The notes under the pieces were generated by a model. It was not told the origin of the DNA. It saw only the letters and a program-made list of their open reading frames with translations, and did not search any database. 45,563 bases of DNA from Bacilli bacterium (GTDB taxonomy: Bacteria > Bacillota_I > Bacilli_A > ML615J-28 > CAG-313), in NCBI GenBank assembly GCA_045612145.1, contig JAZKYN010000070.1, forward strand, positions 1 to 45,563, in the 5' to 3' direction. Position 1 is the first letter of the stretch. Each line of letters starts with the position of its first letter. This document shows positions 2,005-24,627 of this stretch, one piece after another. The position numbers and the translations under genes are program-made.

Positions 2005-2697
2005 ATGAACAAAAACGATATAATTGAGAGAATTGAAGTTGACGACAAACAAATAGCAGAAGTCAACCACGAAATTATACAAGTTCAAGACTACGAGGTC
2101 GAAGTCATACAAGAAGACGTTAAAGAAATAAAAAAGTTTATAAAAAAGAGAAAGCGACAAATAAAAAACTACTACCTTGAGACAGAGAAAGGTCAAGAGA
2201 TAGTGAACTCGCTAGAGAACAGTGATGGTCTTAATATTTTTGCAATAAACAAATACCTGTTTGAACCGTTGCTAAAACCTAGCCGTTGCGTGAAACAATA
2301 CAGTGAAATTGAAATTCTTATAGTTTTAGAGTTTTATCAAGAGCAAATGCTTGAAATAAATAAAAAAACTATGTTTCCTCCTCAATTAGAGCAATATTGC
2401 AGACTTTTAGGAATTTCTACAACTGTTTTCAAGAAACAATACATCAACAGTAATAACGATGAACTTAGAAATGCTGCACAACAAGTTGTGGATTACATTG
2501 CTAGTGGTCTTTCGTTTGCTGGAATGACAAGACAAGTGGACTCTACAAGCCAAATTTTTGCACAAAGAAGTTCTCTTAACAGACAAGACAAAGAAAAAGA
2601 AGAGAGACAAGAAAACAACGTTGCAATCGCTGTTATAGATGCAGATGATTTCAGAAGTGCTGTTGCTAACCTTACAGCAGGCTTCTTAAAAAAATAA
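2005..2697 (+). CDS. putative terminase small subunit (HTH plus oligomerisation region)
   Basis: Start moved to the ATG after GGAAGGAG. The segment LEQYCRLLGISTTVFKK is HTH-like. The segment GLSFAGMTRQVDSTSQIFAQRSSLNRQDK resembles the C-terminal signature of gp3-type TerS. It lies upstream of terL. Confidence 0.5.
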   Translation: MNKNDIIERIEVDDKQIAEVNHEIIQVQDYEVEVIQEDVKEIKKFIKKRKRQIKNYYLETEKGQEIVNSLENSDGLNIFAINKYLFEPLLKPSRCVKQYSEIEILIVLEFYQEQMLEINKKTMFPPQLEQYCRLLGISTTVFKKQYINSNNDELRNAAQQVVDYIASGLSFAGMTRQVDSTSQIFAQRSSLNRQDKEKEERQENNVAIAVIDADDFRSAVANLTAGFLKK

Positions 2698-2720
2698 ATT
2701 AAATTTTTTATTATAAACTA

Positions 2721-2749
2721 TTGACAAACAAAGTTGATTGTGATATAAT
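2721..2749 (+). promoter_or_regulatory. promoter P4 (TTGACA-17-TATAAT, TGA extended -10)
   Basis: Perfect consensus hexamers at 2721-2726 and 2744-2749. Confidence 0.7.
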
Positions 2750-2755
2750 ATAGGC

Positions 2756-3081
2756 GTGGAAACCGAATGGCGGCTCGGAAGACACCTAATTGAATATTAA
2801 TGTCGCCAAACAATATTTCAATTAGTAACGAAATAAATAGTTTAAACATTTTTTTAATATTGCTAGGAACAGACGGTGTTCTCGAAAGGCTAGCTGGTAG
2901 AGCTTACCCAATACTGATTAGATAGGTTCGAATCCTAATAGCGGTTTTTAAAAGTTAGAATGATTTTATTTCAAGCTTATACTTTGGAAATTTGAACTAA
3001 GACTCGCAAACTTATTTTTTATTCTCCGAGGTTGAGGCGGGCGGACGAAGAATGAGGGATTGTTTTTCGTCTGCTTTTTTT
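2756..3081 (+). ncRNA. candidate ~325-nt structured non-coding RNA / leader
   Basis: ORF-free interval between P4 and the terminator at 3041-3081. There is a 13-bp bulged hairpin at 2786-2825 whose loop CGCCA can pair with TGGCG at 2768-2772. There are nested hairpins at 2862-2894 and a T-arm-like TAGGTTCGAATCCTA at 2923-2937. AAACCG (2760) pairs with CGGTTT (2942) to close the domain. Confidence 0.5.
3041..3081 (+). terminator. intrinsic terminator
   Basis: GCGGACGAA / TTCGTCTGC 9-bp stem (one G-U pair), 16-nt loop, T7 run. Confidence 0.7.
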
Positions 3082-3089
3082 ATTGTTAT

Positions 3090-3146
3090 GGGTTGTTAGC
3101 ATAAAGTAATGCGTCCGTGATATTGGTGCAAGTCCAATACAACCCT
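3090..3146 (+). ncRNA. tRNA-like element lacking an anticodon arm (57 nt)
   Basis: Perfect 7-bp acceptor stem GGGTTGT/ACAACCC. D-like arm GCAT-AAAGTA-ATGC. Only a 9-nt connector. 5-bp T-arm ATTGG-TGCAAGT-CCAAT. No encoded CCA. Confidence 0.45.
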
Positions 3147-3205
3147 AGTTCCAATATTTTATGTTTATAAAATTTTTACTTTACTTTCTTAAACGTTTAG
3201 ACTTT

Positions 3206-3236
3206 GCTACCGAGTCTTAAATAAAAGGTAGCTTTT
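3206..3236 (+). terminator. terminator-like hairpin just upstream of the RHH-terL RBS
   Basis: GCTACC ... GGTAGC stem followed by TTTT. Weaker than the others. Confidence 0.35.
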
Positions 3237-3260
3237 AATTAACAATAAGGAGAAATCAAA

Positions 3261-3431
3261 ATGGATAAAAACAGCAAAATTCAACGTTCTATTATCCTTA
3301 CAGTGCAAATGAAGGAAGATTTAGAACAAATTGCAAAAACAAAATATATGTCAGTAAATGACGTGATTAGAATTGCTATTTCTGAATATATAAAAGAGAA
3401 CAAGAAAAACGAAACAGCTGGAGAAAAGTAG
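3261..3431 (+). CDS. ribbon-helix-helix (CopG/Arc-like) DNA-binding protein, 56 aa
   Basis: Not in the ORF track. AAGGAG RBS is present. The pattern RSIILTVQM then KEDLEQIAK then VNDVIRIAISEYI matches a strand-helix-helix layout. The stop lies 4 nt before the terL ATG. Confidence 0.55.
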   Translation: MDKNSKIQRSIILTVQMKEDLEQIAKTKYMSVNDVIRIAISEYIKENKKNETAGEK

Positions 3432-3434
3432 AAA

Positions 3435-5354
3435 ATGAAGATAGACAAGTCACATACAAATTATAGTGATGAGTTTTACACATACGTTCACAGCATAAAC
3501 GACATAAAACTTACTATTGAGAAGCTTTACGACGGAGAAACCAAAAGAGGCATAAGCAAAATTTATTTTGATGCAGAAAAGCATTATAAATTGTTAGCTT
3601 TACTTAGAGATGGTTTACAATCGGTTAGAAAAATAAATGACTTCGAGGCTAGTAGGTTAGCAATCTATATAGCTATACCTTTAGCTGAAAGATACCTTAC
3701 AAGGATACAAAAGCTTTCAGAGACTGGTGATAGTAAGAAATACGCAAAATATTTTGATTCTTTAAATATATACTGGGATATGGTTGCTGTTGGAGCGAGA
3801 TATTCATTAAATTATTTTATAGAATATATGTTTCACAACAAGAGTAAGAAACCGTATCAGTTTAGAAAACAAATCTTAGCTTCTGCGGTTTTTTATGTAG
3901 GTAGAGGATTTCTAGAAAGATTAAAAATCGGAATAGACTTTAGAGACAATATGGTCGCACCGAACTTAGTTCTATTTTCGACGTTTCCATCGAGTGGTAA
4001 AACACTTATAGCAAACTACGCTATGGCGTGGATTAAATGCTTAGCTATGATAAAAATTCGTGGCGGAGGAATGCTGAGAATCGGCAACGAAGAAGGAAAC
4101 GTTAATAAAAACTCTCAAGCTATAAAAGATATAATATTAGATGAAACAATAATAGATGTTTTTCCAGAAATGGACGAACTTAGAGATGATAAAGGAAAAT
4201 ATAAACCTTTTGATAAAGATAGTATAGATGAGTGGTTTCTTAAAGAAGATAAAGAAGAACCTAAATCTGCTGTTTTTAGAACGGCTGGTTCTGCTACCAA
4301 CGGTATAAGAATTAACTTAGGACTTATCATAGATGACCCTAGTAGAGGTATGGTAGATAGAAAGAATGTAGATACTCATCAAAGAATTATAGCGAGTTAT
4401 AACGGTGACTGGCGAAGCAGATTTGACAATGAAGATGATTCATTCGTTTTTGCTTTAGGTACAAGATTCAATAACTTTGATGTGTTTAGTGCGATTCAAG
4501 ATACAGCTGAGAAAAAAGGTTTGTACAAAGATGAAAACTTTGAAAACACTTATAAAACAAAAGATGGAAAAACAGTTATTATAAATATAGATTGCGAAAA
4601 AGATGACGGAAGTGGAGCGTCAAGATACCCTGAGCTTATTTCTGACTCGACATTAGAGGACAAAAGGAACTCTATGAGCAAACAAGAATATTATTGTGTA
4701 TATAGACAAAAACCGATTCCTGAGGAAGGTCTTGACTTTGACTATTCTTTATTAAATACTTACGATGAAAAGTACGAAGATGACCAATTAGATACTTTCG
4801 CTTACGCTTCTTGCGACCCTACAAGAAAGACTGGTCAAGACTACTTATCATTACCTATTTTTAAAGCTGTAATAGATAAGAAAGATAAAAACTTCGGAAA
4901 ATATGCACTTATAGATGTAATATTTATACAAAAAAGTGTAAAAGACGAACAAACTTTCCAAAGAATTATAGAAAAGATAGTGAATAACGGTATAAAGAAA
5001 CTGTACTTAGAAATAAACACTGATACTTCTTTAGGTCAAAGAATACAAGACCATCTACAATCAATTGGATATAACATTCTTGTTATAAAAGAAATATATA
5101 GCACGCAAAAGAAAAGCGAAAGAATAGCTGACCAAACAAGTTCTATTCATAGAAATATGGTATTCCCTAGAGAAGGCATGTATCCTAAATATACTGAAAT
5201 AGGGCATTTTATGGAACAATTGACTATGTATTCAAGCTCTAGTGCGAATAAGCACGATGATGCCGCTGATAGTGTTGCGACATTCAGTAGAGAACACATA
5301 GACACAACGAAAATAAAAAATACAATTAAATTTAATTCTAAATCTTTAAGATAA
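3435..5354 (+). CDS. terL: terminase large subunit
   Basis: Walker A-like FPSSGKT, Walker B-like GLIIDDP, and C-terminal nuclease acidic motifs ASCDPT and HDDAADS. It lies directly before the portal gene. Confidence 0.9.
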   Translation: MKIDKSHTNYSDEFYTYVHSINDIKLTIEKLYDGETKRGISKIYFDAEKHYKLLALLRDGLQSVRKINDFEASRLAIYIAIPLAERYLTRIQKLSETGDSKKYAKYFDSLNIYWDMVAVGARYSLNYFIEYMFHNKSKKPYQFRKQILASAVFYVGRGFLERLKIGIDFRDNMVAPNLVLFSTFPSSGKTLIANYAMAWIKCLAMIKIRGGGMLRIGNEEGNVNKNSQAIKDIILDETIIDVFPEMDELRDDKGKYKPFDKDSIDEWFLKEDKEEPKSAVFRTAGSATNGIRINLGLIIDDPSRGMVDRKNVDTHQRIIASYNGDWRSRFDNEDDSFVFALGTRFNNFDVFSAIQDTAEKKGLYKDENFENTYKTKDGKTVIINIDCEKDDGSGASRYPELISDSTLEDKRNSMSKQEYYCVYRQKPIPEEGLDFDYSLLNTYDEKYEDDQLDTFAYASCDPTRKTGQDYLSLPIFKAVIDKKDKNFGKYALIDVIFIQKSVKDEQTFQRIIEKIVNNGIKKLYLEINTDTSLGQRIQDHLQSIGYNILVIKEIYSTQKKSERIADQTSSIHRNMVFPREGMYPKYTEIGHFMEQLTMYSSSSANKHDDAADSVATFSREHIDTTKIKNTIKFNSKSLR

Positions 5355-8346: not shown

Positions 8347-9348
8347 ATGAGAACAACATTAAGTACATTAGAATTATCACAATTCACACAAGCTTATAAA
8401 CCACAAATCAATTATCTTGGTGATGAATTACTTCCTAACCAATTCTATGACAGCGTTCAATTTGCTTGGGAAATGGTTAGAGGTAAAGACGCATTACCAG
8501 TTATGGCTGAAGTAAGTGCATTAGATGCTGAAGCACCAATCAGACAACGTAATGATGCTGAAAGATTCGAAGAAGAAGCATTATACATTAAACATAAAAT
8601 CAATTTAACAGAACACGAAGCAAGAGTTAAACGTTATGGTGTTGGTAGTCAACAAATTAAAGAATTAGTATTTGGTGACATTGACAACTTATACCGTGGT
8701 GTTCGTGCTAGAGTTGAAGCTATGAAAATGGAATTATTTGCTACTGGTAGAATCACTATTAAAGAAAACAACATCAACAAAACAGTTGATTACAAAATGT
8801 CTTCAGAAAACATTTTTGCAATTGACTTAACTGATGAAAATGCAGATGTATTTGAATTAGTAGAAAGAGTTAAAGATGCTGCTAGACAAAAAGGTAAAGA
8901 AATTAACGCTGCAATTGTTAGCTCAAGAGTTATTAGTTTACTAAAGAAAAACAAAGTTTTACAAGAAGCTAGAAAAAATTCAAGCATTGTTGTTGACCCT
9001 TCTGAAGGTGCATTTATGACTTGGTTAAGAGCTGCTTTAGAATTACAATTTGCTGTATATGATGCTCAATATCAATACGAAAATGCTGATGGTTCAAAAG
9101 CAACATCTCGTTTCTTCCCAGATGATAGAATCACATTCTTAGCTTATAATGGTGCATTAGGTGTTGGTGCATTCTCACCTACTCCAGAAGATATGTTACT
9201 AAATGAAGAATCATATAGAATTGATAACTTAGCAACAGTTACAGAATGGGTAGAAAAAGACCCTGCTGCTCAATGGACTAAAGTTTCAACAACAGCACTT
9301 CCAATTATTGCAGATATGGATAACGTCTATATTTGTTATACAATGTAA
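8347..9348 (+). CDS. major capsid protein (gpE-like family)
   Basis: 333 aa. Position and N-terminal pattern are typical of the phage major capsid protein E family. Confidence 0.8.
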   Translation: MRTTLSTLELSQFTQAYKPQINYLGDELLPNQFYDSVQFAWEMVRGKDALPVMAEVSALDAEAPIRQRNDAERFEEEALYIKHKINLTEHEARVKRYGVGSQQIKELVFGDIDNLYRGVRARVEAMKMELFATGRITIKENNINKTVDYKMSSENIFAIDLTDENADVFELVERVKDAARQKGKEINAAIVSSRVISLLKKNKVLQEARKNSSIVVDPSEGAFMTWLRAALELQFAVYDAQYQYENADGSKATSRFFPDDRITFLAYNGALGVGAFSPTPEDMLLNEESYRIDNLATVTEWVEKDPAAQWTKVSTTALPIIADMDNVYICYTM

Positions 9349-14853: not shown

Positions 14854-15612
14854 ATGACAACAAATTTTATGACTATAACAATTGACGGAATTGACATTAG
14901 TAAATATTCAGAATATTATGTTTTAAATCATATAACAAAAAAGACAGAACCTAAAAGAAGTGACGCTTTTACTATGACAAACATAAACGAAATTGAACAA
15001 GTAGAAATTCCAGAAATATTTATTAAATTTAAATATATAAAAATAGATTTATACAGACAAATAATTCAAGCAACAAGAAAAACAGAATTTGCAGTAACAT
15101 ATTATGACCAAGACTATGATATGATTAGAACAAATATGTTTTATTTAAAAGATAAAACTAGTTTGAATCCACACGCTTGGGGTGGAAGATATTACGGTTT
15201 TAAAGAATTTGAACTAAATTTAGTTTGTACAATGAATCCAGTTTCTACACTTAGTATTGGATTATATAATGAATCTAACGTAGAATATAAACTACCTTAC
15301 CTTATTGATTGTGGTAAAATTTCAGATGCTAACAAAAGTGTATATGTGTCAACAAAATTAAACGATAGTTTTATTGCTAATGAAATAGAAGTAACATTTT
15401 CTAATGATTCTTTAAAATTAAGTGGTACAAACGTAGTTAAAGAAGAAGAAAGTAATGTTTATAAAGTTAAAACAAACAATTCAACTCAGACTTTAATTAA
15501 TATAAATATTTCTAATTTGAAGTTTACTGGAGAATACGTTATGTTTTTAAGCGTTAAAGATTCAAATTACGGTAATAGTACTGTTAGCTGTGTGTTGAAA
15601 GTAGGAAATTAA
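14854..15612 (+). CDS. distal tail protein (Dit) candidate
   Basis: 252 aa, immediately after the TMP. Confidence 0.55.
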   Translation: MTTNFMTITIDGIDISKYSEYYVLNHITKKTEPKRSDAFTMTNINEIEQVEIPEIFIKFKYIKIDLYRQIIQATRKTEFAVTYYDQDYDMIRTNMFYLKDKTSLNPHAWGGRYYGFKEFELNLVCTMNPVSTLSIGLYNESNVEYKLPYLIDCGKISDANKSVYVSTKLNDSFIANEIEVTFSNDSLKLSGTNVVKEEESNVYKVKTNNSTQTLININISNLKFTGEYVMFLSVKDSNYGNSTVSCVLKVGN

Positions 15613-24598: not shown

Positions 24599-24627
24599 TT
24601 GACAGCAAAAAAAGAATGTGGTATAAT
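24599..24627 (+). promoter_or_regulatory. promoter P5 (TTGACA-17-TATAAT, TGTGG -16 region)
   Basis: Perfect hexamers. It overlaps the upstream part of track ORF 24599..24979, which argues for the downstream start at 24650. Confidence 0.7.

Follow-up and report, generated by a model that had tools for sequence, protein, structure and literature searches.

Positions 2721-3260 of the DNA analysed here (the window, a stretch of 45,563 nucleotides from a Bacilli bacterium contig, JAZKYN010000070.1, and seemingly a complete AT-rich phage genome of ~30% GC) hold a transcription unit that separates a gene for a probable, divergent terminase small subunit (TerS) from the genes for an RHH protein and the terminase large subunit (TerL). 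The unit comprises a consensus promoter, a conserved structured RNA of about 325 nucleotides (nt) that we call RNA1, and a strong intrinsic terminator, and it is followed by a 57-nt tRNA mimic without an anticodon arm (mini-tRNA). We tentatively propose that the interval is a late-operon leader and antitermination checkpoint, made of a new RNA family and provided with tRNA-like processing modules, an account that may well be right but to which we do not commit ourselves firmly. A leader with a terminator checkpoint is the simplest reading of the conserved architecture; antitermination, the role of the 5' module in it and processing at the tRNA-like modules are what we infer beyond that. The family of mini-tRNAs is the best-supported new object of the interval and appears to be undescribed in the literature we searched. 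An initial annotation of the window had seen here a structured noncoding RNA between a promoter and terminators ahead of the late genes. A real, conserved RNA unit without an Rfam family and the layout of promoter, RNA, terminator and late genes both survive from that reading, while the helix thought to close the RNA does not, and the tRNA-like modules had been overlooked.

Results

A conserved promoter-RNA-terminator unit

The unit has the following parts (L numbers designate related loci, described below).

2721-2749, forward strand: sigma-70/sigma-A consensus promoter with extended -10, TGTGATATAAT; 12/12 hexamer matches, kept in all relatives
2756-3083, forward strand: RNA1, a predicted transcript of ~325 nt, its ends deduced from the promoter and the terminator U-run
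2756-2785, forward strand: hairpin P1, with outer helix 2756-2758/2783-2785, inner helix 2763-2765/2776-2778 and a loop containing UGGCGGC
2786-2825, forward strand: hairpin P2, 13 base pairs (bp) with one bulge and loop AAUGUCGCCAAAC; present in the minimum free energy (MFE) fold
2769-2807, forward strand: candidate loop-loop (kissing or pseudoknot) pairing, 2769-2774 GGCGGC with 2802-2807 GUCGCC
2859-2945, forward strand: tRNA-like four-way domain, with a 7-bp acceptor-like stem 2859-2865/2939-2945 and arms 2866-2882 and 2888-2908; in the MFE fold
2922-2938, forward strand: canonical T arm of this domain, GGUUCGAAUCC, compensated in relatives
3003-3011, forward strand: conserved single-stranded motif (C/U)UCGCAAAC, found in the window, L001, L002, L007, L158 and L010
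3039-3083, forward strand: intrinsic terminator, a long hairpin of 17 pairs with a GGGA tetraloop, then TTTTTTT

The promoter is, as first described, a perfect TTGACA-17-TATAAT, and a TG precedes its -10 hexamer. The only other 12/12 sites in scans of 1-28000 are those at 1127 and 24599; a site at 1752 has 11/12 matches. The stretch was also described as free of open reading frames (ORFs), and indeed it has no conserved one. Neither of its two short ORFs is kept in relatives; the 41-aa ATG ORF at 2800-2925 lacks its ATG in L001 and meets a stop after ~19 codons in L002 and L007. The RNA as a whole folds better than expected (MFE z = -2.3; 2 of 100 shuffles did equally well), but its single domains are not significant on folding energy alone, so the case for structure rests on covariation and comparison, which together with the whole-RNA energy bear out the claim of a structured RNA.

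No match to the window was found in Rfam 15 at the gathering threshold, and searches of 2650-3300 and 2850-3160 at E <= 10 returned chance-level matches of at most 18 bits. Neither EAR, T-box, tmRNA, 6S, riboswitch and ribozyme models nor any other Rfam model matched RNA1, the same two kinds of search (gathering threshold and E-value) gave nothing for RNA1 in the relatives, and ARAGORN reported no genes in the window. The view that this RNA belongs to no known family therefore stands against Rfam 15, and we found no paper describing RNA1 in the literature searched.

Relatives were sought through the flanking proteins. Blastn found no similar DNA among GenBank phages, and single-protein TerL scans of IMG/VR and of GTDB genomes found no close TerL; a large protein collection yielded TerL relatives at 98, 76-77, 57-61 and 56% identity, and contigs were gathered through TerL and through the upstream protein, TerS. 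All relatives have a non-coding gap of 450-810 nt before RHH-terL. A homologous RNA1 unit occupies eight loci from seven lineages (the window, L011, L001, L002, L007/8, L158/9, L161 and L010), with TerL identities of 56-98% and TerS identities of 44-98%. The conservation and covariation in related terS-terL gaps on which the initial annotation had made its proposal depend are thus present: the unit is kept in eight loci, and P1 and P2 covary. Since L010 retains the 5' module, the UCGCAAAC motif and the terminator alone, without tRNA-like parts, the conserved core consists of the promoter, the P1-P2 module, UCGCAAAC and the terminator. A pattern scan of IMG/VR with the RNA1 5' module gave 91 matches, all attributable to chance (coding or GC-rich DNA).

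Three further relatives carry a different structured RNA of ~370 nt in the same slot before RHH-terL (L003 5473-5845, L006 5473-5842, L009 480-852). It shows 15 compensated pairs among the three sequences, comes with a consensus promoter of its own and a long stem resembling a terminator, and ends ~35-45 nt before RHH; it also holds a conserved GUGAAAAGUGCGAAAGCGAUUU motif and a stretch that resembles the 5' half of a tRNA (GGCUCAUAGUUCAGUUG). Neither Rfam nor R1, our model of RNA1, matches it, so we rejected homology between these leaders and RNA1, and a motif scan of public collections for leaders of this type found none. Because these phages replace RNA1 with a non-homologous RNA in the same layout, it is the architecture, and not just the sequence, that is conserved, and all relatives retain it.

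Two covarying hairpins at the 5' end

P1 and P2 abut without a spacer and together span 70 nt. In the eight-sequence alignment 86.9% of their cells are paired, against 31-44% in slid controls; seven pairs are altered on both sides, and the observed values were attained in 0-5 of 500 shuffles. Four of the seven P1 pairs are altered on both sides, and even in L011, a 98% relative, C2763-G2778 of the window becomes U-A, a compensatory change. In P2, three of the nine lower pairs are altered on both sides and 88.9% of cells are paired, so the 13-bp bulged hairpin predicted at 2786-2825 is real and covaries.

The same prediction held that the P2 loop is complementary to a stretch just upstream. This complementarity, GGCGRC with GUCGCC, is found in all eight homologues at 2769-2774/2802-2807 (93.8% of cells paired), its variation being limited to A-U/G-U exchange, and judging by these sequences a kissing interaction between P1 and P2 is plausible. 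A long-range helix of AAACCG with CGGTTT, proposed to close the RNA, must be given up because the C-to-U change at 2763 is compensated locally, inside P1, by a G-to-A change at 2778; its CGGUUU strand also overlaps the better local 7-bp acceptor-like stem 2859-2865/2939-2945.

The variable middle and the terminator of RNA1

The middle of RNA1 is its variable part. Nested GCTAG/GAACA hairpins, noted previously, are confined to the window and the L011 lineage, and the tRNA-like four-way domain is absent from L010. The T-arm-like element recognised earlier at 2923-2937 fared better, as its stem is compensated between lineages (TAGG/CCTA, TGGG/CCCA, GCAGG/CCTGC, ATTGG/CCAAT and GTAGG/CCTAC). The arms of the inner domain are non-canonical for tRNA; the homologous domain of L001 (5466-5536, 71 nt) scores 24.3 bits against the Rfam tRNA model, under the gathering score of 29. 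In L001-type RNAs the loop of a covarying hairpin contains the first copy of UCGCAAAC, and a second, terminator-proximal copy pairs with UUGGGAC. We considered and rejected a tmRNA, standard or permuted: there is no ARAGORN or Rfam match, the acceptor stems lack G3-U70, and the peptides read from the GCA of UCGCAAAC onward differ in length and are unrelated among the window, L001, L002, L007 and L010.

The strong terminator, first placed at 3041-3081, maps to 3039-3083 with 17 pairs and a U-run. Its stem is wholly different in the window, in L001-type RNAs and in L010; position and U-run are kept, and an apical AGGGAUU with the GGGA tetraloop is common to the window and L001-type terminators. 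Two further ideas were dropped. A promoter embedded in the terminator of L001-type RNAs (TTCRCA-17-TAGTAA) has a poor -10, and by eye the window has no such arrangement. A switch involving the acceptor strand and the 5' strand of the terminator is possible in L001 but not conserved in L002 or L007.

Genes beyond the terminator lack a recognisable promoter of their own

Real genes for tRNA-Met, tRNA-Met and tRNA-Gln fill the slot after the terminator in L007/L008 and L158/L159. In L158/L159 the first tRNA-Met starts 14 nt past the terminator U-run, the third tRNA ends ~25 nt before the RHH ATG, and no promoter-like site lies between the RNA1 promoter, P3704, and RHH. As L158 leaves no room for another promoter, its downstream genes must be reached by reading through the terminator, and this obligatory passage favours a cis-acting reading of the RNA. 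The window itself has no promoter of 11-12/12 matches between 2749 and 3260. On its forward strand the next 12/12 promoter does not come until the lysis genes, at 24599; sites with 11/12 matches, at 14891 and 20604, are intragenic. The scan found no forward-strand terminator between 3084 and 24391.

A family of mini-tRNAs without an anticodon arm

The element directly behind the terminator went unnoticed in the earlier reading.

3090-3146, forward strand: mini-tRNA, 57 nt; its MFE fold is identical to the proposed structure
L001 5688-5744, L002 4171-4230 and L161 1989-2046: copies of the mini-tRNA, in a family of 55-60 nt
L103 4093-4149 and L145 1017-1071, reverse strand: copies of the mini-tRNA; that of L145 encodes ACCA

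The window copy has a 7-bp acceptor stem, GGGUUGU/ACAACCC, followed by U8 and A9, a D arm (GCAU-AAAGUA-AUGC), a T arm (AUUGG-UGCAAGU-CCAAU) and a discriminator U. All helices have exact tRNA dimensions, and a 9-nt linker takes the place of the anticodon arm. Among seven distinct sequences, 7/7 acceptor pairs and 3/5 T-stem pairs are altered on both sides, every cell is paired (100%), and none of 500 shuffles reaches the observed score; the D stem, which was scored one position out of register, is invariant. Acceptor pairs are compensated across five lineages, unrelated phages included. The architecture recurs in L001, L002, L161, unrelated IMG/VR phages of ~33 kb (L103-L113, L143, L150) and L145. 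Our mini-tRNA model, R2, gives the window copy 65.7 bits and sets minis of 55-60 nt (62-78 bits) apart from intermediates of 62-68 nt and from ordinary tRNAs. Against the Rfam tRNA model RF00005 the L001 and L002 copies score 41.1 bits (gathering score 29); the window copy has no Rfam tRNA match even at E <= 10, and ARAGORN reports nothing. As a tRNA, then, the mini-tRNA has the geometry and covariation of the acceptor, D and T helices, and lacks the anticodon arm with its 7-nt loop.

Other tRNA-like genes share some of its features. In the metagenome loci L114-L151, tRNAs of ordinary length (Thr, Lys, Gln, Ile, Pro and other anticodons) have a D arm UAGCAUAA..AAUGC that lacks GG, together with G at position 55 in the T loop (GGUGCAAxUCC); the combination is unusual and looks like the mark of a tRNA type carried by phages. 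Because these ordinary-looking tRNAs share the D arm and the G55 T loop, the mini-tRNA can be understood as a truncated derivative of that type. The minus strand of L103, from ~5006 down to 3975 in a ~33-kb phage, carries six or more odd tRNA-like genes in an array, several with 6-bp 'anticodon' stems and 12-nt loops (AUCCNUGUACA-like), one with a very long arm, and one 53-nt unit without D stem and anticodon arm; the same array is found in L104-L112, L116, L128-L129, L136, L141, L147, L149 and L150. In L103 it stands upstream of Holliday-junction resolvase, ParB-like and Rep genes, and as the mini-tRNA there belongs to an array in a DNA-metabolism module, the element is not tied to terminase. 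More distant IMG/VR relatives with higher GC (L163-L170, TerL 34-40% identical) have a single tRNA of ordinary type, for Trp or Thr, ~650 nt ahead of terL, and a tRNA slot ahead of terL may be older than RNA1.

Downstream of the mini-tRNA there is one more structure.

3199-3232, forward strand: interleaved helices S1 (3199-3204/3212-3217) and S2 (3206-3211/3227-3232), a candidate H-type pseudoknot

The candidate lies ~20 nt upstream of the RHH Shine-Dalgarno sequence and has an A-rich third loop. Its hairpin, at 3206-3232, had been taken for a second terminator at 3206-3236; the hairpin is real, but it is helix S2 followed by UUUU and forms half of the interleaved, pseudoknot-like pair. The layout is matched by 38 of 500 shuffles for the window and by 1 of 500 for L001 (5773-5809), where, as by eye in L002 (~4262-4298), it is built from unrelated sequence; it is absent where real tRNAs occupy the slot. 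A TTACCTTTT-like motif after the mini-tRNA was considered as a late-promoter motif and discarded, having no recurrence in the genome.

Flanking genes

Rightward genes run from 1182 to ~29.3 kb and encode, besides the TerS-like, RHH and TerL proteins, an SPP1-type portal, scaffold, capsid, tail and lysis proteins. Between 29.4 and 45.4 kb the genes point leftward and make up a replication/recombination module (RecT, SSB, replisome organiser, ERCC4, HNH). The RNA interval is placed between the ORF at 1951-2697 and the RHH-terL pair.

2005-2697, forward strand: probable TerS, divergent, of GP3_package type; probable start at ATG 2005, giving 230 aa
3261-3431, forward strand: RHH protein of 56 aa (RHH_1, E 5e-4; phrog_582/876)
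3435-5354, forward strand: TerL (phrog_38 at 1e-27)
After TerL (5354), forward strand: portal, scaffold and capsid genes (portal PF05133 at 1.7e-35)

The spacing of 737 bp between terS and terL reported at first is correct in length, but the RHH ORF sits inside it, and the non-coding part is 563 bp. The label terS itself has support by a transitive route. The upstream protein has no direct match in Pfam, PHROG, PDB or phage tblastn, and an exhaustive profile search with it found 112 remote homologues; among the 66 scanned, PF16677 (GP3_package, best E 8.9e-9) is matched by 31 and the terminase small subunit family phrog_606 by 18. This transitive homology supports its assignment as a distant GP3_package-type TerS. 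Its homologues begin at ATG 2005. An AlphaFold (AF2) model was unusable (pLDDT 48) and was not used. A ConAn1-like identity was rejected, as tblastn found no match to the ORF among 72,556 plasmids and the TerS link is stronger; an Rsd-like identity was likewise set aside, the Rsd_AlgQ matches being below threshold (18 bits against a cut-off of 35).

A small promoter-terminator unit lies at 1638-1750 (TTGACA-17-TAAACT with TG, ~80 nt, hairpin and U-run at 1722-1750), and relatives L003, L006 and L009 carry tandem sets of two or three. A second copy of its promoter lies at 1752-1780, before a terS 5' untranslated region of ~170 nt (~225 nt if translation starts at ATG 2005). The ORF at 1182-1616 (144 aa) has 41% GC inside a 30% GC genome and its own perfect promoter at 1127-1156; it matches no family, homologues of 145-166 aa occupy the same place in relatives, and it is probably an acquired 'moron' gene. 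The ~1.2 kb at 1-1180, between the divergent early and rightward modules, is very AT-rich (23% GC) and without long ORFs; it holds many imperfect inverted and direct repeats and a perfect 19-nt inverted pair (183-201 / 746-764), and may be an origin or control region.

Discussion

In the account we favour, host RNA polymerase would initiate at the consensus promoter 2721-2749, synthesise the ~325-nt RNA of the new family and then meet the strong intrinsic terminator. The tRNA slot, RHH, terL and ~21 kb of structural genes, which have no recognisable promoter, would be expressed solely by polymerases that pass the terminator. The P1-P2 module would be the likeliest element to make polymerase terminator-resistant, because it is made first, is best conserved and covaries; it could act alone, like HK022 put and Tn916 canT, or bind a phage or host factor, as in the pairs nut-N and conAn2-ConAn1. 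The tRNA-like domain of RNA1 and the mini-tRNA (or the real tRNAs) would be likely cleavage sites for RNase P and RNase Z, given that a 7-bp acceptor stem is the main determinant for RNase P (PMC4201824). Such cleavage would separate the leader from the late mRNA and free stable sub-RNAs.

Several points weigh against this account. Neither an antiterminator protein nor a known RNA motif was identified. As no terminator-like sites were found inside the 21-kb operon, processive antitermination is not obviously required. The terS gene has its own near-consensus promoter, from which transcripts would also cross RNA1, and the boundary of a 'late operon' is blurred thereby. A constitutive-looking promoter combined with a constitutive antiterminator would provide no regulation. 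The loop-loop helix varies solely from A-U to G-U and so shows no true covariation, and the 5'-module model finds nothing outside a narrow clade. Finally, our sigma-70 scan was simple and leaves room for an activator-dependent or phage-specific promoter in 3084-3260.

In a bolder version, RNA1 would represent a class of processive antitermination RNA that is new in structure and self-sufficient, with two kissing 5' hairpins acting on host polymerase to license the late operon, and the mini-tRNAs would be a widespread new class of phage tRNA mimic that serves as RNase P/Z punctuation, freeing the late mRNA from its leader, or as trans-acting decoys for host factors that bind tRNA; we consider it unlikely in this full form.

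Among the alternatives, RNA1 might instead be a free-standing, abundant small RNA that acts in trans on host or phage RNAs or sponges a protein, with a leaky terminator feeding the downstream genes. This is possible, if somewhat improbable. A self-contained promoter-RNA-terminator unit with conserved structure is what such a small RNA would look like, and the unit at 1638-1750, repeated in tandem in relatives, offers a second example in the same phage; the single-stranded UCGCAAAC and the GC-rich loops are possible seed regions. However, the phage genome has no complementary sites beyond chance. Sequences complementary to UCGCAAAC and to the P1 loop are about as frequent as chance predicts, matches to the P2 loop number 10 against 4.4 expected, and relatives do not keep the single 12-nt match, which falls in the capsid gene (8671-8682). 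A trans-acting RNA also leaves unexplained why the unit always stands last before the promoter-less tRNA or RHH-terL block.

We think it doubtful that the gap is at heart a cassette of tRNAs and tRNA mimics, in which the promoter at 2721 drives the RNA1 cloverleaf and then the mini-tRNA or real tRNAs, the 5' hairpins being a mere leader and the products acting, for instance, as decoys or sponges for defences that target tRNA or for host enzymes that bind it. The tRNA-like domain within RNA1, the very strong covariation of the mini-tRNA and its presence far from terminase in the odd arrays of unrelated phages all fit such a cassette, as do the real tRNAs in the same slot of L007 and L158 and the tRNA ~650 nt upstream of terL in distant relatives. 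Yet L010, with 5' module and terminator but no tRNA-like parts, indicates a conserved core unrelated to tRNA. Nor does a cassette account for a strong terminator in mid-operon, and a 5' module that covaries and is the best conserved part exceeds the needs of a passive leader.

A packaging role, either as a pac or cos region in DNA or as a motor RNA like phi29 pRNA, is very improbable even though the position between terS and terL is conserved and complementary hairpin loops could pair between molecules, as those of phi29 pRNA do, since the consensus promoter, the terminator and G-U-tolerant compensation indicate RNA rather than a DNA site, a standard TerS, a nuclease-domain TerL and an SPP1-type portal need no pRNA, and relatives swap the RNA for an unrelated one.

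Beyond the models lambda, T4 and phi29, little is known of how phages time their late genes. If true, a late-operon leader in which a terminator checkpoint follows a consensus promoter and a conserved folded RNA would be a compact case of RNA-linked antitermination, to be added to the few RNA-only or RNA-plus-protein systems known (put, EAR, conAn, canT). The mini-tRNA matters independently, as a mimic of 55-60 nt without an anticodon arm that selection has maintained in at least five lineages. It points to a non-decoding use of the tRNA 'elbow and acceptor' shape, be it as processing signal, enzyme decoy or primer, and it exposes an annotation gap, for mini-tRNAs escape tRNA finders and Rfam thresholds.

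Comparison with known systems

With tRNA (RF00005) the mini-tRNA shares the 7-bp acceptor stem, U8-A9, the 4-bp D stem, the 5-bp T stem, the 7-nt T loop and the discriminator. In contrast, it has a linker of 8-12 nt and no anticodon arm, and for that reason cannot decode; its T loop is mostly UGCAAxU with G55, and its D loop lacks GG. A tRNA mimic within a longer transcript, possibly recruiting RNase P and RNase Z, is also found in MALAT1 mascRNA and MEN-beta (PMC11693755) and in the tRNA-miRNA units of MHV68, but these are eukaryotic or viral nuclear systems, and mascRNA keeps a short anticodon stem. The YrlA type of Y RNA comes closer in being non-decoding, in having D and T arms and an acceptor-like stem, and in occurring in phages too; YrlA of M. 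smegmatis is cleaved by RNase P (PMC4201824). YrlA, however, is permuted (T arm, acceptor-like loop, D arm), its ends form the Ro60-binding helix, and it lies beside Ro60/Rsr (PMC4201824). The mini-tRNA has the order acceptor, D arm, linker, T arm, acceptor, with free ends, and is thus not of the YrlA type; no TROVE match indicative of Ro60 was found among the window proteins scanned.

In lambda, the strong constitutive promoter PR' directs the 6S RNA, a leader of ~200 nt terminated at tR', and with Q the late genes, terminase included, are expressed via read-through alone. The RNA1 locus has the same strong promoter, terminated leader and promoter-less late genes. Lambda Q acts via a DNA site and a sigma-dependent pause. 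Here, no Pfam match to a Q-like gene was found among the 25 window proteins scanned, and by eye no TAnnnT-like, -10-like pause element is present in 2756-2780. Lambda 6S RNA is not known as a conserved structured RNA, whereas RNA1 covaries.

HK022 putL and putR consist of two adjacent stem-loops of ~70 nt early in the transcript (PMC9378689), which as nascent RNA bind RNA polymerase and suppress termination in cis without any protein, and P1 and P2 of RNA1 likewise add up to 70 nt, without a spacer. A cis-acting logic upstream of terminators would be common to both, suggested for RNA1 by the layout. There is no sequence similarity, put has no loop-loop pairing, and put serves the early operons of a lambdoid coliphage.

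Large cis-acting antitermination RNAs of 260-600 nt head long operons in Gram-positive mobile elements (PMC8191782; PMC11658703). Like canT of Tn916 (PMC11658703) and conAn2 of pLS20 (PMC8191782), RNA1 is a structured RNA, several hundred nt long, that heads a very long operon, lies upstream of an efficient terminator and is poorly conserved in sequence between elements; the promoters of RNA1 loci carry the extended -10 TG, a feature that suggests a Firmicutes-like host. The likeness is one of layout. It has two limits: canT and conAn bypass several terminators and one is predicted here, and conAn requires ConAn1 encoded just upstream, where the window has TerS, with no plasmid match, and not a ConAn1 homologue. 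RNA1 matches no described family, and its logic resembles that of the known antitermination leaders.

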